From: a candidate division NC10 bacterium CSP1-5
Lineage (GTDB): Bacteria; Methylomirabilota; Methylomirabilia; Methylomirabilales; CSP1-5
Direction: 5' to 3'
DNA: 64,000 nucleotides
Assembly: GCA_001443495.1 (NCBI GenBank)
Contig: LDXR01000006.1
Coordinates: 11,059 to 75,058, forward strand
The notes beneath the pieces were generated by a model. That model had not been told where the DNA came from. It worked only from the letters and a program-made list of their open reading frames with translations, and searched no databases. Position numbers and translations under genes: made by a program. Below are positions 5,182 through 37,562 of the stretch, piece by piece; positions within the stretch are counted from its first letter, which is position 1; every line of letters begins with the position of its first letter.

Positions 5182-6261
5182 ATGTTGCCCTGGGTCGACA
5201 AGCTGCGGGAAATCGAGGAGCGGTACGAGGAGTTGAGCCGGAAGCTGGCCGATCCCTCCGTTCTCCAGGATCCCACTACCTTTCAGCGCCACGCGAAGGC
5301 CCACGCCAGTCTCCATCCTCTCGTCGAGAAATACCGGGCCCACCAGCGGCTGATGCGCGAGCAGGATGAGGCCGCCGCCCTCCTCGGGGAGGCGACCGAC
5401 CCAGAGATGCGGGCGTTGGCCGACGGGGAACTCAAGGCCCTCAAGGGGCGACGGGAGGCCTTGGAGCGCGAGCTGCAGGAGCTGCTGCTTCCCAAGGACC
5501 CGACCGACGAGAAGGGCGTGATCATGGAGATCCGAGCCGGGGCCGGAGGGAATGAGGCAGCGCTGTTCGCCGCCGATCTCCTCCGAATGTATACTCGGTA
5601 CGCGGAGGCGGCCCGCTTCAAGGTGGAGATGCTCTCGGCTCATCCTACGGGGATCGGCGGGATGAAAGAGGCCATCCTGGCGATTGAAGGCAAAGGGGCC
5701 TTCCGGAAGTTGCGTCACGAGAGTGGCGTCCATCGCGTCCAGCGGGTGCCCGCCACCGAGGCGAGCGGTCGGATCCACACGTCGACGGTGACGATCGCGG
5801 TCCTGCCTGAGGCGGAGGAGGTCGATGTGCAGATCGACCCGAAGGACCTCCAGATCGACGTCTTCCGGGCCAGCGGTGCCGGGGGACAGCACGTGAATGT
5901 CACCGACTCGGCGGTCCGGATCACCCACATCCCGACAGGTCTGGTGGTCTCTTGTCAGGACGAACGGTCCCAGCACAAGAACAAGGCCAAGGCCCTCAAG
6001 GTCCTCCGGGCGCGTCTCTTGGAGCGGGCCCGGGCCGAGCAGGACCGGGAGATCGCCGATGCCAGGCGCCAGCAGGTCGGGACGGGGGACCGGAGTGAGC
6101 GGATCCGGACATACAACTTTCCCCAAGGCCGGGTGACCGATCACCGTATCGGGCTGACGCTGCATAATCTCCCGGGGCTCCTCGACGGCAACCTGGACGA
6201 GTTGACGCAGGCCCTGATGGCTCATCATGAGGCGGAGCGGCTGAAGGCCCCCTCGGCATGA
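5182..6261 (+). CDS. prfA: Peptide chain release factor 1
   Basis: PAT codon-recognition tripeptide (RVPATE) and GGQ motif (SGAGGQHVN). ATG 5182 chosen over GTG 5161. Confidence 0.95.
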
Positions 6262-11072: not shown

Positions 11073-11189
11073 GGTTCAGAGTTTATGGTTCATGGTTCAT
11101 GAAAGTGCGTGGATCCAAAAAAACTTCCTTTCGTTTTGTGTCTTGGCTCTCACCTTCAACCCTGAACCCTGAACTATGAACCATGAACT
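11073..11189. repeat. Heptad-periodic inverted repeat element (4 heptads, 54-nt spacer, 5 complementary heptads)
   Basis: Left arm GGTTCAG AGTTTAT GGTTCAT GGTTCAT (11073-11100); right arm TTCAACC CTGAACC CTGAACT ATGAACC ATGAACT (11155-11189). A 7-bp hairpin GGACCGC-ttc-GCGGTCC (11055-11071) precedes it, and it ends 3 nt before the hisH ATG. Confidence 0.9.
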
Positions 11190-12656: not shown

Positions 12657-13471
12657 CGAAGCGGATCATCCCCTGCCTTGATGTCAAGGATGGCCGGGTG
12701 GTGAAGGGGACCAGGTTCGTGGACCTGAGAGACGCGGGCGATCCAGCCGAGGTGGCTGAGCGGTACGATCGCGAGGGAGCCGACGAGCTGGTCTTCCTCG
12801 ACATCACCGCATCGGCGGAGCGCCGCAAGATCCTGATCGGGGTCGTCGAGCAGACAGCCGAACGGGCCTTCACCCCTCTCACGGTCGGGGGCGGCATCCG
12901 GGATCTGAAGGACATCCGCGCCCTCCTCCTGGCCGGGGCGGACAAGGTCTCTCTCAATACGGCGGCGGTAGAGAATCCGAGCCTCATCCGAGGGGCAGCG
13001 GAGCGATTCGGCAGTCAGTGCATCGTACTCGCCATCGACGCCAAACGCCGTCCGTTCAGGGTTCAGGGTTCAGGGTTCAGAGAAGGACCGAACCATGAAC
13101 CATCCACCATGAACTCTGAACTGACCTGGGAGGTGTACATCCACGGCGGTCGCACACCCACAGGTTTGGATGTGGTGGCCTGGGCAGAGCGGGGAGTGGC
13201 GTCGGGATCGGGGGAGATTCTCCTGACCAGCATGGACCGAGATGGAACCCGCGACGGGTACGATCTAGAACTGACGCGCGCGGTCGCTAGGCGCGTCGGT
13301 GTACCCGTGATCGCCTCGGGGGGGGCCGGGACGATGGAGCATCTGTACGAGGCCCTTGTCGAGGGGGGGGCCGATGCGGCCCTTGCCGCCTCTATCTTCC
13401 ATTTCCGGGAGATTTCTATCGGTGAGGCCAAGGCGTACCTGAAGGGGCGTGGGATCCCCGTCCGCTTGTGA
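12650..13471 (+). CDS. hisF: Imidazole glycerol phosphate synthase, cyclase subunit HisF (carries a ~23-aa repeat-encoded insertion)
   Basis: [20 protein letters not shown] start and near-full-length match to canonical HisF. ATG 12650 overlaps the hisA stop; the ORF-table start 12335 is an out-of-context extension. Confidence 0.95.
13053..13122. repeat. Heptad-periodic inverted repeat element inside the hisF coding sequence
   Basis: CGTTCAG plus 3x GGTTCAG (13053-13080), 7-nt loop, CCGAACC ATGAACC ATCCACC ATGAACT CTGAACT (13088-13122). Translated in frame as [23 protein letters not shown]. Confidence 0.9.
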
Positions 13472-31177: not shown

Positions 31178-31376
31178 AGATGCTCCCCTTTCCGCGAATA
31201 TCCTCCATGCGCCCGCCGCCTGCTCCACCCCGGACCGGACCGCCTGGGCTATGGTAGACCGGATCGCCCCCCGAAGGAAGAGGCGGCTCCTCCTGCATGG
31301 GCACGGTCACCAGAAAGCCCTCGCCGCTGTATGGCTCGACAATTGCAAAGTGGAGAGACTGGAGACGAATGAGGCG

Positions 31377-31511
31377 ATGGCGAAGCAGGATATCCGGTTC
31401 TGTCCGTTCTGTTCCGTGATGCAGTTCGACATGGCAGAGGTGGGGGCCAGCGTCCACTGCGAGGTGTGCGGTATCGAGGTGGCAGCGGAGGAGCTGGTCG
31501 AGACCGTCTAA
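31377..31511 (+). CDS. Small zinc-ribbon protein (44 aa)
   Basis: CPFC...CEVC pair, GC-rich third codon positions, acidic tail. The TAA stop lies inside the 140-nt repeat. The longer ORF from 31251 has no support. Confidence 0.45.
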   Translation: MAKQDIRFCPFCSVMQFDMAEVGASVHCEVCGIEVAAEELVETV

Positions 31512-31647
31512 AGCAAACGCACAAAGTGCGTTTACTTTGGAGCAATGGAGCAGTGGAACAATAGAGTGATGTTGGAGGCGCAATGCCCCATTGCGGTCTA
31601 ATGTTCTATTGCTCGATTGTCACAAGATGAAATGCGTTTGTATTAGT
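31508..31647 (+). repeat. 140-nt AT-rich structured element, copy 1
   Basis: Gap-free alignment with 35702-35841 gives 126/140 identical by hand count. It begins CTAAAG on the TAA stop of the small zinc-ribbon ORF. Confidence 0.9.
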
Positions 31648-31685
31648 TGGAACGGGGGATCGGGTGTCCTCCGCCGTGCATTCGC

Positions 31686-31720
31686 AAGAAAAAGAATGGC
31701 CCCGCCGGAGCGGGGCCATT
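31686..31720 (-). terminator. Intrinsic terminator of cspA
   Basis: 11-bp stem AATGGCCCCGC / GCGGGGCCATT with 4-nt loop, followed on the minus strand by CTTTTTCTT. Confidence 0.8.
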
Positions 31721-31738
31721 CCAAGGAAAACGAGGCAA

Positions 31739-31948
31739 CTACACCTTGGTCACATTGGCGGCCTGCTTGCCCTTGGGGCCGTCGACGATGTCGAATTCCA
31801 CAGTCTGGCCTTCTGTGAGTGATCGGAACCCGCTCCCGGCAATGGCACTGTAGTGGACGAAGACGTCATCGCCGTCGGAACGCTCAATGAAGCCGTACCC
31901 CTTGGCGTCATTGAACCACTTCACCTTGCCCGTTACGCGCACCTCCAT
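31739..31948 (-). CDS. cspA: Cold-shock protein (CspA family)
   Basis: [15 protein letters not shown] (RNP1) and DVFVHYSAI (RNP2), 69 aa; SD GGAGGGAAAGGAGGG. Confidence 0.95.
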
Positions 31949-32010
31949 CCCTCCTTTCCCTCCGAGATTCCAGGCGTGGCAGCCCTGCGTCGCGCAAGGG
32001 CGCCAGGGCA

Positions 32011-32047
32011 GAAAAAAACCGCGAGGGTCCTGGATCTTCCCCCGCGG
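32011..32047 (-). terminator. Terminator-like hairpin plus U7 inside the cspA 5' leader (attenuator candidate)
   Basis: Minus strand reads CCGCGGGGG-aagatccagga-CCCTCGCGG-TTTTTTT, ending ~64 nt upstream of the cspA ATG. Confidence 0.55.
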
Positions 32048-32107
32048 TCAGGCGAATCGAGGTGACAAGCCAGACCGAGACGAATGGTGCTGCAGTCAAT
32101 AGACCAC

Positions 32108-32127
32108 CGATGTCGAGCGATGTCGAG
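32108..32127. repeat. Perfect tandem duplication CGATGTCGAG x2 in the cspA leader
   Basis: Read directly from the sequence. Confidence 0.85.
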
Positions 32128-32165
32128 CAACGTTCCAGGTCCCTGTCCTGCGAAAAACAGGCGGA

Positions 32166-32194
32166 AATCTACGGAATTTCCCGCATGCTGTCAA
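32166..32194 (-). promoter_or_regulatory. Sigma70-type promoter for cspA (TTGACA-17-TAGATT on minus strand)
   Basis: Reverse complement of 32166-32194 reads TTGACAgcatgcgggaaattccgTAGATT; implies a ~210-nt 5' UTR. Confidence 0.55.
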
Positions 32195-32216
32195 GTCTTT
32201 TTTCATGCGACTCGTA

Positions 32217-32245
32217 TTGACTTTCGTAGATCGGTCCGTTAGTCT
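32217..32245 (+). promoter_or_regulatory. Sigma70-type promoter for galU-lon (TTGACT-17-TAGTCT)
   Basis: Back-to-back with the cspA promoter. Confidence 0.55.
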
Positions 32246-32297
32246 TTGATTTTGTATCGGTGACGAAGGCACGATCGTCGAGAAGAAAGGGGAAGTC

Positions 32298-33221
32298 ATG
32301 AAGGTCCGCAAGGCGGTGTTTCCGGTCGCGGGCCTCGGGACCCGATTCCTGCCGGCCACGAAGGCGCAGCCCAAAGAGATGCTCCCTATCGTCGATAAGC
32401 CGGCGATCCAATACGCGGTCGAGGAGGCGCTGGCGGCCGGCATCGAGACCATCATCATGGTCACCGGCCGGGGGAAGGATGCTATTGAGAATCACTTTGA
32501 CCGCTCGGTGGAGCTTGAGCAGGTCCTGGGGGCCCAGGGAAAGGCGGACCTCCTCCGCGAGGTGCAACGGATCCCGGAGCTCGCCGCGTTCTGTTACATC
32601 CGCCAGAAGGCACCGCTCGGTCTCGGCCACGCCGTGCTGGTGACGAAGGACCTGGTCGGCGAGGAGCCCTTTGCCGTCCTGCTCGCGGATGACCTGATCG
32701 ATGCTCGGGTCCCGGGCATTCAGCAGATCCTCGAGGTCTTCGACCGGTATCGCGCCTCCGTGCTGGCCGTGTCTCCCGTCTCTCGCGAGGAGCTGAACAG
32801 CTACGGGATCATTGCCGGGCGGGAGGTCGCAGCCGGGGTCTACCAGGTGACCGATCTCGTGGAGAAGCCCGCTCCCCAGGACGCCCCCTCCAACTTGGGC
32901 ATCGTGGGGCGCTATGTGCTTACCCCGCAGATCTTTGAAGCGCTCGAGCAGACGCCGTCCGATGCGCGGGGAGAAGTCCAACTGACCCACGCCCTCAAGG
33001 GGCTCTTGCGGCGCCAGAAGGTGTATGCGGTCGAGCTCAAGGGTCGGCGGTACGATACAGGGAGCAAGTTGGGGTTTCTGCAGGCCACGGTGGAGTTGGC
33101 ACTCAAGCGGTCGGACATCGGAGAGGCCTTTCGGGCGTATCTCAGAGGGTTGAAATTGGCCCCAGGGGCTCGGAGGCCAGTGGTCGACAGGGCGAGGCGG
33201 ACCGCACAGAAAAAGCGGTAG
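32298..33221 (+). CDS. galU: UTP--glucose-1-phosphate uridylyltransferase
   Basis: KAVFPVAGLGTRFLPATKAQPKEMLPIVDKP signature. Confidence 0.95.
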   Translation: MKVRKAVFPVAGLGTRFLPATKAQPKEMLPIVDKPAIQYAVEEALAAGIETIIMVTGRGKDAIENHFDRSVELEQVLGAQGKADLLREVQRIPELAAFCYIRQKAPLGLGHAVLVTKDLVGEEPFAVLLADDLIDARVPGIQQILEVFDRYRASVLAVSPVSREELNSYGIIAGREVAAGVYQVTDLVEKPAPQDAPSNLGIVGRYVLTPQIFEALEQTPSDARGEVQLTHALKGLLRRQKVYAVELKGRRYDTGSKLGFLQATVELALKRSDIGEAFRAYLRGLKLAPGARRPVVDRARRTAQKKR

Positions 33222-33242
33222 ACGCCGAAGCGGGAGGTCGCG

Positions 33243-35705
33243 TTGGTGAAACGCATCAAAGAGAGCAAGGGCGTGGCGGACATAGCAGCCGAGGGGCAGG
33301 GGTTGGTGGGGTCGGAGCGGAAGATACCCGAGACGGTCCCCGTGCTTCCGGTGCGGGACATGGTGGTGTATCCATTTATGATCCTCCCCCTCTACGTGGG
33401 GCGGGAGAAGTCCATTCGGGCGGTCGAGGGGGCCCTGAGTCGGGATCGTCTCATCCTCCTGGTGGCCCAGAAGGATGCCGAGGTGGAGGATCCCAATTCC
33501 CAGGAGATCTATCCGGTCGGCACGGTCACCATGATCATGCGGGTCCTTAAGATGCCCGATGGTCGGGTGAAGATCCTCGTCCAGGGGCTTGCCCGGACCA
33601 GGATCCTGGAGTTCCTTCGGAAGGAACCGTACTTTGAGGCCCGGATTGCGGAAATCCTCGATGATGAGGTGCCGACGATGGGGGTGGAACTGGAGGCGCT
33701 GATCCGCACCGTCAAGGAGCAGGTCTCGCGCAGCGCCTCTGTGGGCAAGCAGATATCTCCCGACATCCTGGTGATTATCAATAACCTGGACCACCCCGGA
33801 CGGCTCGCTGATCTGGTCGCCTCGCATCTGGACCTCAAGGTGGAACAGGCGGTGGAGATTCTCGAGATCACCAGTCCGGAGGAGCGCCTGCGGCGGATCA
33901 GCGACTTCCTCCGGAAGGAGATCGAACTCCTGGAGGTGCAACAGCGCATCCAGAGCCAGGCCAAGGAGGAGATAGATAAGACGCAGCGGGAGTACTATCT
34001 CCGGGAGCAGCTCCGGGCCATTCAGAAGGAGTTGGGGGAAACCGACGAGCGGCAGCAAGAGATCGACGAGTTCTCGGCGAAGATCGAGAAGGCCAAAATG
34101 CCCTCCCCGGTCGCCGCAGAGGCCAAGACGCAACTGAATCGCCTCGCGCGGATGCATCCGGATGCCGCAGAGGCGTCTGTGGTTCGGACGTACCTCGAGT
34201 GGCTCATCGAGCTGCCCTGGAGCAAGCAGACGCGGGATAAGATCGATATCGAGCGGGCGCGGAAGATCCTGGACGAGGACCACTACAACCTGGAGAAGGT
34301 CAAGGAGCGGATCCTGGAGTACCTGGCGGTCCGCAAGCTTAAGAAAAATAAGATGAAGGGTCCCATCCTCTGCTTTGTGGGGCCGCCGGGGGTCGGCAAG
34401 ACCTCTCTGGGGCGCTCCATCGCCCGGGCGCTCGGCCGGAAGTTCGTGCGGATTTCGCTCGGCGGGGTCCGGGATGAGGCGGAGATCCGGGGCCACCGGC
34501 GGACATACATTGGGGCCCTCCCCGGCAAGATCGTTCAGGGGATCAAGACCGCCGGGACCAACAACCCCGTCTTCATGATGGATGAGGTCGATAAGGTCGG
34601 GGCGGACTTCCGGGGCGATCCTTCGGCGGCTCTGCTCGAGGTGCTGGATCCGGAACAGAATGTGGCCTTCACCGACCATTACCTGGGGGTGGCCTTCGAC
34701 CTCTCGAAGGTCATGTTCATTACGACGGCCAACATGGCTGACCCGATCCTTCCCGCCCTGAAGGATCGCATGGAGACCATCGAGATCTCCGGATACACGG
34801 AGGAGGAGAAGCTCCACATTGCCCGACGGTATCTCATTCCGCGGCAGCTCAAGGAGCACGGGATCACCGAGGGGCAACTGCAGCTCACGGACGAAGGCGT
34901 GCTCAAGATCATCCGGGGCTACACGCGGGAGGCGGGACTCAGGAATCTGGAGCGGGAGATTGCCACCGTCTGTCGGAAGGTGGCCAAAGAGGTGGCTGCG
35001 GGGAGGACGGAACCCTTCCGGGTGACCGCCCAGAATCTCCATCGATTCTTGAAGGCCCCCCGGTATCTCCCCGAGCCCGAGCAGGAACAGGATGAGGTGG
35101 GTGTCGGGACGGGCCTCGCCTGGACCCAGGCTGGCGGGGACATCATGTACGTCGAGGCGACGGTGATGAAGGGAAAGGGCCAACTCTTGCTGACGGGGCA
35201 TCTGGGTGAGGTGATGAAGGAATCGGCCCAGGCGGCCTTGAGCTACGCCAGGGCTCGCGCCCCGGAGCTCAGGGTCAAGGAGGACCTGTTCTCCAAGGTG
35301 GATATCCATATCCACGTGCCTGCGGGGGCCATCCCGAAGGACGGACCCTCGGCCGGGATCACCATGGCGACCGCACTGATCTCCGCCCTGACCCGGGTTG
35401 CGGTCAAGAGGAGCGTGGCCATGACGGGCGAGGTGACATTGCGGGGGAAGGTCTTGCCGGTCGGCGGGGTCAAGGAGAAGGTTCTGGCTGCCCGCCGGGG
35501 CGGCATCACCACCGTGCTCCTCCCGCAGAAGAACGACAAGGATGTCAAGGAGCTGCCCAAGACGATCCGCCGCGGGATGCACTTTGTCTTTGTGGAGCAC
35601 ATGGATCAGGTCCTCGCGGCGGCCCTGGTCAGGCCGGTCAAGGAGAAAGGCCAGGTCGGGATCGCCGCGGCGAAACGGCCGACCCCGGCCATGACGGTCC
35701 ACTAA
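33243..35705 (+). CDS. lon: ATP-dependent Lon protease
   Basis: LON N-domain, Walker A GPPGVGKTS, protease Ser in PKDGPSAGI, 820 aa; TAA stop lies inside the 140-nt repeat. Confidence 0.97.
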   Translation: MVKRIKESKGVADIAAEGQGLVGSERKIPETVPVLPVRDMVVYPFMILPLYVGREKSIRAVEGALSRDRLILLVAQKDAEVEDPNSQEIYPVGTVTMIMRVLKMPDGRVKILVQGLARTRILEFLRKEPYFEARIAEILDDEVPTMGVELEALIRTVKEQVSRSASVGKQISPDILVIINNLDHPGRLADLVASHLDLKVEQAVEILEITSPEERLRRISDFLRKEIELLEVQQRIQSQAKEEIDKTQREYYLREQLRAIQKELGETDERQQEIDEFSAKIEKAKMPSPVAAEAKTQLNRLARMHPDAAEASVVRTYLEWLIELPWSKQTRDKIDIERARKILDEDHYNLEKVKERILEYLAVRKLKKNKMKGPILCFVGPPGVGKTSLGRSIARALGRKFVRISLGGVRDEAEIRGHRRTYIGALPGKIVQGIKTAGTNNPVFMMDEVDKVGADFRGDPSAALLEVLDPEQNVAFTDHYLGVAFDLSKVMFITTANMADPILPALKDRMETIEISGYTEEEKLHIARRYLIPRQLKEHGITEGQLQLTDEGVLKIIRGYTREAGLRNLEREIATVCRKVAKEVAAGRTEPFRVTAQNLHRFLKAPRYLPEPEQEQDEVGVGTGLAWTQAGGDIMYVEATVMKGKGQLLLTGHLGEVMKESAQAALSYARARAPELRVKEDLFSKVDIHIHVPAGAIPKDGPSAGITMATALISALTRVAVKRSVAMTGEVTLRGKVLPVGGVKEKVLAARRGGITTVLLPQKNDKDVKELPKTIRRGMHFVFVEHMDQVLAAALVRPVKEKGQVGIAAAKRPTPAMTVH

Positions 35706-35841
35706 AGTAAACGCACTACGTGCGTTTACTTTAGAGCAATGGAGCAGTGGAACAATAGAGCAATTGTGTAGGCGAAATGCCCCATTGCGGTCTAATGGTC
35801 TAATGCTCCATTGTCACAAGATGAAATGCGTTTGTAATAGT
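35702..35841 (+). repeat. 140-nt AT-rich structured element, copy 2
   Basis: Same orientation and length as copy 1. It begins CTAAAG on the TAA stop of lon and ends 44 nt before the rnj start. Confidence 0.9.
35811..35840 (+). promoter_or_regulatory. Candidate promoter for rnj carried by the 140-nt element (TTGTCA-18-TAATAG)
   Basis: Motif match inside repeat copy 2. The equivalent TTGTCA-18-TATTAG is at 31617-31646 in copy 1. Confidence 0.4.
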
Positions 35842-35885
35842 GCCGTTCCAGACCCACAGACAGAATAGATTGGAGGGTGCCCGGT

Positions 35886-37562
35886 TTGCCGGAAAACGAA
35901 TGGGTGCGGATCATCCCCCTCGGTGGCCTCGGGGAGATCGGGATGAACATGTTTGTGGTCGAGACGACGGACGATATAGTCGTCATCGACGCCGGGCTGA
36001 TGTTCCCCGAGGAGGAGATGCTGGGGATTGATCTGGTGATCCCGGACTTCAGCTACCTGCTGGAGCACCGCGAAAAGGTTCGCGGACTCATCCTCACCCA
36101 CGGCCACGAGGACCACACCGGATCGCTCCCCTTCCTCCTCAAGGAGCTCCCCATCCCCGTCTACGGGACCCGCCTTTCCCTCGCCCTGGCGGCCGAGAAG
36201 ATTCACGAGCAGGGTCTCGACGCCGACCTGCGGCAGGTCGCGCCGCGGGAGTCCTTCCGCTTGGGAGGCCTGCAGGCGGAGTGCATGCGGGTCTGCCACA
36301 GCATCCCCGACGGGGTGGGGGTGGCCCTGGAGACGCCAGCAGGCCTCATCATCCACGCCGGGGATTTCAAGTTTGATCCCACCCCGGTGGATGGGAAGCT
36401 CACCGACTATCACAAATTCGCCGAACTAGGAGACCGTGGGGTGTTGGTTCTCCTCTCCGATTCGACGAATGCCCTTCGGCCTGGCTTCACGCCCTCGGAG
36501 CGGACGGTGGGGCAGGCCCTGGAGGAGATCTTTCGAGCGGCGAGACGGCGGATCGTCGTCGCCTGCTTTGCCAGCCACATCCATCGCATCCAGCAGGTCC
36601 TGGACGTTGCCGCCGGGATGGGGAGAAAGGTGGCCGTCCACGGTAAGAGCATGATCGCCAACACCCGGATTGGGGCCGATATGGGGTATCTGAAGATCCC
36701 GCCCGGCGTCTTGGTGCGGCTCGACGAGCTGAGACACGTGTCCCCGGCCGAGACGGTGATCATCGCGACCGGGTCCCAGGGCGAGCCCCTCTCCGCCATT
36801 GCACGGATCGCGGCGGGGGAGCACAAACAAATTGAAATCACCCCCGGAGACACGGTGGTCTTCTCCGCCAGGGTGATCCCGGGAAACGAGCGATCGATTG
36901 CGCGGACTATCAACCAGCTCCTCAGGCGGGGGGCAGAGGTGGTCACGGAGGAGCTGGCCCCCGTGCACGTGTCGGGTCACCCGTGTCAAGAGGAGCTCAA
37001 GTTGATGCTGAACCTCACCCGCCCGAAGTTCTTCCTCCCGATCCACGGCGAGTACCGGCATCGCCACCACCATGCGCGTCTCGCCGCGGCAGTAGGGATT
37101 GATCCGGAGCACATCTATCTGGCCGAGAACGGCGATATCCTCGAATTTACTCCCGACAAGGGGGGGATCGTTGGCAAGGTCGCCGGGGGTCGAGTCTTTG
37201 TGGATGGGAAGGGCGTCGGGGATGTGGGAGATGCCGTTCTCCGGGAGCGACAGCATCTGGCGAGGGATGGGATGGTGGTGGTGGTGGTGGGGCTGCATCG
37301 GGAAACGCGGGCCGTGGTCGCCGGTCCAGAGATCATCTCTCGAGGCTTCGTGCATCTCCAGGATCAGGACGCCCTCTGTGACGCGGCCAGACGGGTGGTG
37401 ACGGAGGTGCTGACAGGGGGTCCGGGGGAGGAACGGGGGGATGTGGCCCTGCTGAAGGAGGACGTCAAGGTGGCGCTTAGAAAGTTCATTCAGAAGACCT
37501 TTGATCGCCGACCCATGATCCTGCCGGTCATCGTCGAGATGGAGGGGGATGCCGGTGCCTAA
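35886..37562 (+). CDS. rnj: Ribonuclease J
   Basis: IIPLGGLGEIGMN, metallo-beta-lactamase HGHEDH, beta-CASP and C-terminal domain. TTG 35886 lies 9 nt after GGAGGG; GTG 35877 abuts the SD. Confidence 0.93.
   Translation: MPENEWVRIIPLGGLGEIGMNMFVVETTDDIVVIDAGLMFPEEEMLGIDLVIPDFSYLLEHREKVRGLILTHGHEDHTGSLPFLLKELPIPVYGTRLSLALAAEKIHEQGLDADLRQVAPRESFRLGGLQAECMRVCHSIPDGVGVALETPAGLIIHAGDFKFDPTPVDGKLTDYHKFAELGDRGVLVLLSDSTNALRPGFTPSERTVGQALEEIFRAARRRIVVACFASHIHRIQQVLDVAAGMGRKVAVHGKSMIANTRIGADMGYLKIPPGVLVRLDELRHVSPAETVIIATGSQGEPLSAIARIAAGEHKQIEITPGDTVVFSARVIPGNERSIARTINQLLRRGAEVVTEELAPVHVSGHPCQEELKLMLNLTRPKFFLPIHGEYRHRHHHARLAAAVGIDPEHIYLAENGDILEFTPDKGGIVGKVAGGRVFVDGKGVGDVGDAVLRERQHLARDGMVVVVVGLHRETRAVVAGPEIISRGFVHLQDQDALCDAARRVVTEVLTGGPGEERGDVALLKEDVKVALRKFIQKTFDRRPMILPVIVEMEGDAGA

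Follow-up and report, generated by a model that had tools for sequence, protein, structure and literature searches.

A probable TA-targeting miniature transposon at stop codons of the NC10 bacterium CSP1-5

Two repeats flanking the cold-shock protein, GalU-like and lon genes of the NC10 (Methylomirabilota) bacterium CSP1-5 very probably arose when one family of non-autonomous DNA transposon, a MITE about 133 nt long, inserted independently at two sites. This MITE is a new family within a well-known kind of element. The repeats provide a clean sequence-level example of a TA-specific transposon surviving in a GC-rich genome by landing in TAG stops, and gene ends that are annotated in these lineages as a TAA followed by a conserved hairpin would be insertion scars, not native signals.

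The repeats and their insertion sites

The window, which is the whole 64,000-nt stretch of DNA analysed, hosts the repeats at 31508-31647 and 35702-35841. Proper alignment upholds the original prediction of two direct copies about 90% identical, as they match without gaps at 126 of 140 positions (90%). No other repeat in the window comes near this length, the next families measuring 29-47 nt (63-83%), and no third copy occurs there. The elements had been described as AT-rich, which holds relative to the surroundings (the GC fraction of 140-nt intervals is 0.47-0.51 over the elements and about 0.58-0.70 around) but not in absolute terms. Both copies open with CTAAAG, and its TAA is indeed the stop codon of the upstream plus-strand gene, the small ORF (31251..31511) or lon. 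The small ORF product weakly matches the Pfam A2L zinc-ribbon, and its orthologues are 44-46 aa long in L060-L063, L065 and L067. Features are listed in Table 1.

Site occupancy differs between relatives. At the end of lon, L062 and L066 are unoccupied, and read caCTAGTGCCGTTCC where the window has caCTA[AAGT...TGTAA]TAGTGCCGTTCC; in codons, caC-TAG-TGCCGTTCC in L062 corresponds to caC-TA[133 nt]TA-G-TGCCGTTCC in the window. The unoccupied small-ORF site is gtCTAG in L060 and L062, and gtTTAG in L063. Further pairs of empty and filled sites are L032 (tcGTAG) and L004 (tcGTAAAGT...), and L047 and L035. In L067 both sites are empty, and both the small ORF and lon stop at TGA. C precedes the left TA in 20 of 28 copies, and G follows the right TA in 15 of 17 full copies; this preference is found also at sites other than stop codons. 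As empty sites feature a single C-TA-G, and the window copies have TA on both sides, the element targets TA, prefers C-TA-G and duplicates TA. Duplications of 3 bp (TAA) or 4 bp (CTAA or CTAG) were rejected, because only TA flanks both sides and empty sites contain one TA.

It had been proposed that the element either targets TAA or donates the stop codon. Each option is right in part: the target is TA in C-TA-G, usually in a pre-existing TAG, and only the third base of the stop (TAA) is donated, the gene end being unmoved. Lon terminates in ...TVH, at the same point, whether or not a relative carries the element. A donated or truncating stop codon was rejected, since the C-termini of both Lon and the small ORF product are identical in empty-site relatives. 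Insertion therefore converts TAG into TAA, leaving the upstream protein unchanged: TA is followed by the first A of the element (A(AG...)), and the old G is moved to the far side. In a genome of about 63% GC, many of the TA/CTAG sites tolerant to insertion are TAG stop codons, and insertion into these explains why both window copies start on TAA.

Table 1. Features identified at and around the two repeats (positions in the window)
Feature	Position	Strand	Basis or remark
Small CxxC...CxxC ORF, stop at copy A left end	31377..31511	+	44 aa from conserved ATG; 86 aa from first start
Left TA of target-site duplication, copy A; with A31511, TAA stop of the small Zn-ribbon ORF	31509..31510	+	Empty sites gtC-TAG (L060, L062) and gtT-TAG (L063) vs gtC-TA-AAGC... 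in window
Hairpin 1, copy A: 12 bp, A-tract/stem/T-tract, stop codon in 5' arm	31509..31539	+	Consensus fold, 3 covarying pairs
Probable MITE copy A proper, 133 nt between two TA	31511..31643	+	Window sequence, copy alignment, empty sites
Left terminal inverted repeat AAGCAAACGCA, copy A	31511..31521	+	Inverted match to right end TGCGTTTGTAT
Hairpin 2, copy A: 23 pairs, several G·U pairing only on + strand	31540..31614	+	Predicted fold
Right terminal inverted repeat TGCGTTTGTAT, copy A	31633..31643	+	
Right TA of target-site duplication, copy A; then G31646, old third base of TAG	31644..31645	+	
TTGGAACGG, MITE2 right terminal repeat remnant	31647..31655	+	L058 reads TTGGAACGGTAC there
Cold-shock protein gene (CSD)	31739..31948	-	Pfam
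NTP_transferase (GalU-like) gene	32298..33221	+	Pfam
lon; stop is TA (duplicated target) plus first A of copy B	33243..35705	+	Pfam, relatives' Lon ends
Left TA of target-site duplication, copy B; with A35705, lon TAA stop	35703..35704	+	L062, L066 empty site caC-TAG-TGCCGTTCC
Hairpin 1, copy B	35703..35733	+	Predicted fold
Probable MITE copy B proper, 133 nt	35705..35837	+	Window sequence, copy alignment, empty sites
Hairpin 2, copy B	35734..35808	+	Predicted fold
Right terminal inverted repeat TGCGTTTGTAA, copy B	35827..35837	+	
Right TA of target-site duplication, copy B	35838..35839	+	
GTGCCGTTCCAG, MITE2 left terminal repeat remnant	35840..35851	+	Complete MITE2 at same site in L062, L066
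RNase J gene, 37 nt 3' of copy B right TA	35877..37562	+	Pfam

Dispersal and mode of transposition

By using as seed the exact core 20-mer GGAGCAGTGGAACAATAGAG, 59 further loci have been identified, 6 in species-representative genomes (MAGs labelled Methylomirabilota, Binatia and Nitrospirae) and 53 in metagenomes. These form 29 left-flank groups, corresponding to about 25 distinct, unrelated sites. The right end is absent from several copies. No diverged copies beyond the seeded ones were detected by nhmmer in the DNA examined, and searches for phage or plasmid carriage gave no match among viral contigs or in PLSDB. No paper joining Methylomirabil* with 'miniature inverted' was found in the literature, and NC10 is not mentioned in a 2024 MITE survey.

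The terminal inverted repeats, AAGYAAACGCA at the left and TGCGTTTGTAT at the right end, are complementary at about 9 of 11 positions and are conserved across copies, in agreement with the imperfect inverted repeat already noticed. The element is 133 nt long and is crossed only by mechanical ORFs, and falls within the size range of MITEs (<300 bp, non-coding). The initial MITE-like reading is upheld by the scatter of copies over unrelated sites, by the inverted termini, by the unoccupied sites of relatives and by the 2-bp TA duplication.

The insertion style matches that of the IS630/Tc1-mariner group, and mobilisation in trans by a DDE transposase of this type may be envisaged. For IS630, a published table (PMC2577343 Table 1, citing Tenzen and Ohtsubo 1991) gives a duplication of 2 bp and CTAG as target, and the element shares both the TA duplication and the preference for CTAG. 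The element, in contrast, is 133 nt long and has no transposase; the putative transposase family is suggested by the TA/CTAG signature, not by the ends. Neither an autonomous IS with these ends nor a further occurrence of either end turned up in the 525 kb examined.

A similar case is that of RUP, a MITE of pneumococcus of about 107 bp thought to be mobilised by IS630-Spn1, which is AT-rich relative to the host, carries terminal inverted repeats, inserts at TA, gives rise to stem-loop transcripts, and clusters with, or inserts into, other small repeats (PMC2229807; PMC3049150; PMC10969869). Small size, relative AT-richness, terminal inverted repeats, TA target, stem-loops and stacking with other repeats are all shared by the element. 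The two are not similar in sequence, and their hosts belong to different phyla, that of the element being NC10/Methylomirabilota and allies. RUP has been linked to its transposase by terminal-repeat similarity, whereas no parent was found for the element; RUP is moreover reported mostly 50-150 bp from genes, whereas the element sits on stop codons.

The repeats could alternatively be IS200/IS605-type palindrome-associated (or REP/RAYT-type) elements, which insert in single-stranded form on the 3' side of an asymmetric target (TAA, for instance) and do not duplicate it. This would account for the strongly biased orientation relative to the stop codon, and a prominent left-end hairpin and a structure fitting one strand only are in keeping with it; TA at both ends is, in addition, formally indistinguishable from an element itself carrying one TA. 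Flank preference is however symmetric about TA (C before, G after), as for palindromic CTAG and not for a 5'-only target, and TAG is found at empty sites as well as TAA. The ends are mutually inverted, and are not two like-oriented subterminal hairpins, and at two sites the element is reversed, and the gene ends on its right end instead. Lack of duplication, 5'-only asymmetric target and subterminal hairpins, the traits of the IS200/IS605 and REP/RAYT systems, are therefore not what was found, and this origin is improbable.

RNA structure and orientation

The MITE copies are predicted to fold into two consecutive hairpins. In the consensus structure 98.8% of cells are paired, and hairpin 1 features 3 compensatory pairs; the left arm of hairpin 2 holds the search seed, and is unable to vary in the sample. 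G·U cells are 100 and A·C cells 2, a structure that fits the sense strand only. Sense RNA is more stable by 11 kcal/mol on average (17 of 19 copies), these strand-asymmetry statistics being not independent, as copies are mutually related. Compared with shuffled sequences, the folds of both strands are much more stable (z = -6.2 to -7.3). At 14 sites the left TAA closes a high-GC3 plus-strand ORF, and at 2 sites the right end closes a minus-strand ORF (binomial p = 0.004), with genes in dispersed loci called by an ORF/GC3 heuristic. Orthologous copies are 88-99% identical, and the adjacent right-hand spacer 46-90%.

Sense bias, sense-only structure and slow divergence hint at a role at the RNA level. 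The inserted element would most likely be transcribed with the upstream gene, and the two hairpins, one of which has the stop codon in its stem, would be better formed in sense RNA. The better sense fold and the sense bias may indicate that the RNA is under selection, or subject to a bias linked to transcription, for instance in the role of a 3' hairpin, terminator or processing site. It is conceivable, though rather doubtful, that hosts keep the element as a portable sense-strand module at gene ends, in which the stop-enclosing hairpin and the long G·U-rich hairpin would determine how transcripts terminate, are processed or are stabilised at the 3' end between genes transcribed together, such as lon and that of RNase J; near-exclusive sense orientation, one-strand pairing and slow divergence would then reflect function. 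An appearance of selection could also come from transcription-linked C-to-T bias, or from palindromes being 'corrected' through template switching. Should selection indeed underlie the asymmetries of orientation and strand, this family would lend itself to studies of how, in an uncultured phylum, mobile hairpins are co-opted as operon-internal or 3'-end RNA signals.

Comparable roles are described for ERIC/IRU of enterobacteria and Correia/CREE of Neisseria, palindromic MITEs of about 100-160 bp co-transcribed with their neighbours, as their RNA hairpins alter transcript stability or processing, in an orientation-dependent manner for ERIC (according to PMC2229807; PMC2649163). The orientation bias of the element is in contrast a genomic census, not a measured effect, and unlike ERIC and Correia repeats the element has no convincing promoter at its ends by scan. 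SPRITE is a small repeat enriched near gene 3' ends, with a terminator-like hairpin possibly co-opted as terminator (PMC3049150). It has no demonstrated target duplication, whereas for the element both duplication and empty sites have been identified, and the stop codon itself is overlapped.

The scan for intrinsic terminators revealed a terminator-like site at 31693-31722, beside the cold-shock protein gene. The element was not called; its inner stem AAACGCAC-AAA-GUGCGUUU (-8.9 kcal/mol) precedes UUUACUUU only if the outer A-U pairs open. A candidate outward sigma-70-type promoter at the right end (TTGTCA-N18-TATTAG) was rejected, as it lacks the final -10 T and was not called by scan; the right end is also missing in several copies having a gene start just downstream, which argues against an outward promoter. 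In L065, a close relative (Lon 95%), only 11 nt are left of the small-ORF copy, and this copy is therefore dispensable. Hairpin 1 was also considered as a separately dispersed mini-element, and rejected, since in the sole 'solo' case, again L065, a deletion has left a remnant joined to native flanking sequence.

That the repeats are not mobile DNA but two duplicates of a fixed functional RNA, be it an sRNA gene or a structure of cis-regulatory or 3'-UTR type, is largely refuted as their origin and very improbable, and the fixed 3'-UTR element initially considered finds no support. Folds exceeding shuffles on both strands, compensatory pairs in hairpin 1, sense-orientation bias with G·U asymmetry, and divergence slower than that of the neighbouring spacer would all fit such an RNA, but about 25 unrelated insertion sites, precise single-TA empty sites in syntenic relatives, terminal inverted repeats, and the nearly whole deletion in L065 would not. 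Searches of Rfam similarly argue against it: at gathering score only a tRNA was found in the window, and at E<=1 the element matched only MIR6135, a weak plant miRNA hairpin hit of 31 bits (gathering score, 99).

Gene order and a second repeat family

The order small ORF-CSD-NTP_transferase-Lon-RNase J-FtsK is retained in relatives lacking one or both copies. Since gene order is kept in element-free relatives, the csp-galU-lon block is native, and its origin as a composite transposon was rejected on synteny. It is hardly credible that the block was brought in by a composite transposon made of the two copies, or is rearranged by recombination between them. They are direct repeats 4.2 kb apart, and elsewhere the element links, in single contigs, the left flank of one site with the right flank of another (L033 versus L004 and L001; L025 versus L007), but these chimeric contigs may have been misassembled across the repeat, synteny is kept, and each site has a separate history of filling and emptiness. 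It had also been suggested that the copies could mediate deletion or duplication of the block; no recombinant contig joining the window flank at 31.5 kb to that at 35.8 kb was seen.

A second family, MITE2, flanked by TA and with ends GTRCCGTTCCAA and TTGGAACGGYAC, stacks on the same sites as the 133-nt MITE. The 8 nt found after the two copies, TGGAACGG at 31648 and CCGTTCCA at 35843, are reverse complements of each other, as had been noticed, and this is explained by decayed MITE2 ends. The element and MITE2 mark spots where NC10-type metagenome assemblies can be mis-joined. Complete MITE2 copies (GTRCCGTTCCAA...TTGGAACGGTAC, flanked by TA) have been identified in L061 and L062.

The repeats around the csp-galU-lon block

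The two direct repeats originally described on either side of the csp-galU-lon block (copies A and B) align without gaps at 126 of 140 positions, and the names given to the enclosed genes are upheld by Pfam matches. Both copies begin with CTAAAG, where TAA is the stop codon of the plus-strand ORF upstream. They are AT-rich only by comparison with their surroundings: 140-nt windows over the elements have a GC of about 0.47-0.51, and the flanking sequence has 0.58-0.70. The next repeat families in the window are far smaller (29-47 nt, 63-83% identity), and an nhmmer family profile detected no third copy there. Lon matches, at 100% identity, a protein named 'candidate division NC10 bacterium CSP1-5', and the window therefore comes from an uncultured Methylomirabilota lineage. 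The true product of the mechanically called 86-aa ORF upstream of copy A probably has only 44 aa, with its start at 31377 (MAKQDIRFCPFCS...CEVCG...); in all the relatives examined, the same place upstream of csp holds an orthologue that is 44-46 aa long and has two CxxC pairs. The csp gene and its leader (minus strand, 31691-32034) match the Rfam cspA thermoregulator below threshold (38 bits, E = 2e-7; gathering score 78).

Features of the window and of the compared loci (L numbers: contigs from MAGs, metagenomes and relatives)
Feature	Position	Strand	Remarks
Copy A	31508-31647		after first ORF
Copy B	35702-35841		after lon
First (small) ORF	31251-31511	plus	upstream of copy A; weak Pfam zinc-ribbon match
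Cold-shock protein gene		minus	between copies; Pfam CSD
GalU-like gene			between copies; Pfam NTP_transferase
lon	33243-35705	plus	Pfam Lon
RNase J gene			downstream of lon and copy B; Pfam
MITE2, right-end remnant TTGGAACGG	31647-31655		after copy A, only right end kept; L058 reads TTGGAACGGTAC
MITE2, left-end remnant GTGCCGTTCCAG	35840-35851		after copy B, only left end kept
MITE2, complete	L061:1216-1318		right after first element, small-ORF site
MITE2, complete	L062:5500-5605		right after lon stop, no first element
MITE2, complete	L066		right after lon stop, no first element
MITE2, complete	L033:~1837-1945
MITE2, complete	L001

Insertion at TA and the fate of the stop codon

The gene order small ORF-CSD-NTP_transferase-Lon-RNase J-FtsK is kept in close relatives, so that sites could be compared one by one. 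The lon site is empty in L062 and L066 (Lon 86-87% identical), reading ...gta cac TAG TGCCGTTCCAAC..., and filled in the window, reading ...gtc cac TA(AAGTAAAC...TTTGTAA)TA G TGCCGTTCCAG.... The small-ORF site is empty as gtC TAG (L060, L062) or gtT TAG (L063), and filled in the window as gtC TA(AAGCAAAC...). Two further pairs, L032 (tcG TAG) vs L004 (tcG TAA AGT...) and L047 vs L035, behave alike; in L067 both genes end with TGA and neither insertion is present. The first element is therefore the 133 nt lying between a duplicated TA, which is single in empty sites. Its ends form the imperfect inverted repeat already suspected (AAGYAAACGCA at the left, TGCGTTTGTAT at the right). C precedes the left TA in 20 of 28 copies, and of the 17 full-length ones 15 have G after the right TA; non-stop sites show these preferences too.

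When the element lands in the TA of a TAG stop, its own first base completes a TAA, and the old G is displaced to its far side. The upstream protein is unchanged by the insertion: Lon keeps its end (...TVH) in every relative, down to 83% identity, element present or absent, and the small protein ends in ...V in all of them. Of the two original alternatives, that the element targets TAA or donates the stop, each is right in part: the target is a TA usually already within a stop codon, and apart from the third base nothing is donated.

IS630 is tabulated with a 2-bp TA duplication within CTAG (PMC2577343, Table 1), and pneumococcal RUP has been tied to IS630-Spn1 on the basis of insertion at TA (PMC2229807). 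Because the first element shares these traits, it was assigned to the IS630/Tc1-mariner style of transposition, its insertion signature being the only basis. No parent element with the same ends was found in 525 kb of compared sequence. All testable defining features of MITEs and of TA/CTAG-type insertion were found, and the element is counted as a new family within a known type; those defining IS200/IS605- or REP-type elements were not found. Rfam holds no matching family, viral contigs and plasmids gave no match, and a literature search retrieved no paper linking Methylomirabilota with MITEs.

Dispersal, stacking and exchange between copies

An exact 20-mer of the conserved core (GGAGCAGTGGAACAATAGAG), used as search seed, matches 6 loci in species-representative genomes, MAGs labelled in the records as Methylomirabilota, Binatia, Nitrospirae and 'uncultured bacterium', and 53 loci in metagenome contigs. 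The loci form 29 left-flank groups, corresponding to about 25 distinct insertion sites once orthologues are merged, with one copy per locus. The MITE-like nature of the repeats is borne out by this dispersal, by the inverted-repeat ends and by the TA duplicated relative to empty sites. The Binatia-labelled copy, the most diverged, lies immediately past a tRNA 3' end on a 409-kb contig. An insert of about 40 nt (TGGTTCGACAGGCTSACCACCCCGAGGAAGATCGAGGGGYG) occurs at one and the same position of the second predicted stem-loop (hairpin 2) in L042 (~5430-5610), L047, L049, L050, L061 and L065 (4959-5145). L042 and L054 (10163-10304) have 100% identical flanks and differ by this insert, a sign of recent mobility, of gene conversion or of an assembly effect. 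A second type of insert (GGTTCGAC...CTGTCGAAGGG) interrupts the core in L005, L047 and L061.

The reverse-complementary 8-mers noticed beyond copies A and B are real, and are end remnants of a second family, MITE2. The complete unit is about 100 nt long, has ends GTRCCGTTCCAA ... TTGGAACGGTAC, and is flanked by TA on both sides. At five independent loci it abuts the right TA of the first element, so that the two families are stacked in the same C-TA-G sites; insertions that each restore a TA junction would be expected to do this. In L066 (4837-5316) the last 94 lon codons and part of MITE2 are tandemly duplicated (~430 nt); the junction falls inside MITE2, and gene calling made the duplicate a 94-aa Lon_C gene of its own. 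In L060 (5322-5458) and L063 (5596-5797) the spacer between lon and the RNase J gene hosts neither MITE, and is filled instead with low-complexity CAGC/TCAGC runs and GGAACG/CTAG-rich runs; this spacer is turning over quickly. Runs of CTGAACC/ATGAACC type (e.g. GTTCAGGGTTCAGGGTTCAG) occur twice in the window, 1.9 kb from each other and in inverted orientation (11162-11188 and 13054-13080); similar runs adjoin several first-element copies, including those of L035 and L046, and may represent yet another family of small repeats.

Synteny is kept in relatives without elements, and the csp-galU-lon block is therefore native. The two sites have separate histories: L062 has no first-family copy, L061 only that at the small ORF, L065 the lon copy plus a remnant. 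None of the compared loci joins the outer flanks of copies A and B. Elsewhere, L033 combines through the element the left flank of L004, L012 and L048 with the right flank of L001 and L041, and in L025, compared with L007 and L044, the left and right flanks joined by the element likewise come from different sites. Such joins are due either to copies having recombined or to contigs having been assembled wrongly across the repeat.

Folding and orientation

Both strands fold much more stably than shuffled sequences (z = -6.2 to -7.3). The consensus of 26 distinct copies features a 12-bp hairpin starting on the stop codon (hairpin 1) and a 23-pair imperfect hairpin (hairpin 2). Overall, 98.8% of the cells are paired, the left arm of hairpin 2 including the search seed and being thus unable to vary in the sample. 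Three pairs of hairpin 1 are changed on both sides, and L065 carries a fourth compensatory variant. Among non-Watson-Crick cells, 100 are G·U (10 pairs) vs 2 A·C (1 pair), and the G·U cells pair on the plus strand only. Stability is higher for the plus-strand RNA, by 11 kcal/mol on average and in 17 of the 19 copies. At 14 sites the left TAA ends a high-GC3 plus-strand ORF, and at 2 the right end terminates a minus-strand ORF (p = 0.004); in these counts, as in those by strand, copies share ancestry. The bias is not accounted for by the stop codon as such, because either orientation would regenerate TAA; copies away from stops also run in the direction of the genes or tRNAs closest to them. 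Identity between orthologous copies is 88-99%, vs 46-90% in the adjacent right-hand spacer.

Taken together, fold, G·U asymmetry, orientation and slow divergence suggest that transcripts of the gene upstream run on through the element and that its sense-strand folding matters. Passages in PMC2229807, PMC2649163 and PMC3049150 describe ERIC, Correia and possibly SPRITE repeats as co-transcribed, with RNA folding of importance, and the first element may act likewise. The same patterns could result from transcription-linked C-to-T bias, gene conversion among copies or palindrome 'correction'. Against a role of the sense RNA, the right end is missing in several copies, and in L065, a close relative, a deletion has left just 11 nt of the copy at the small ORF. 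Landing on stop codons and the strong sense bias point slightly past a textbook MITE. Hairpin 1 is a possible terminator, although a terminator scan did not call it; a promoter at the right end was unsupported by a promoter scan. In L065 (886-915; Lon 95% identical) the left 11 nt, gtCTAG AGCAAACGCA, are joined to the native flank, and the fusion happens to complete, by chance, a small hairpin.
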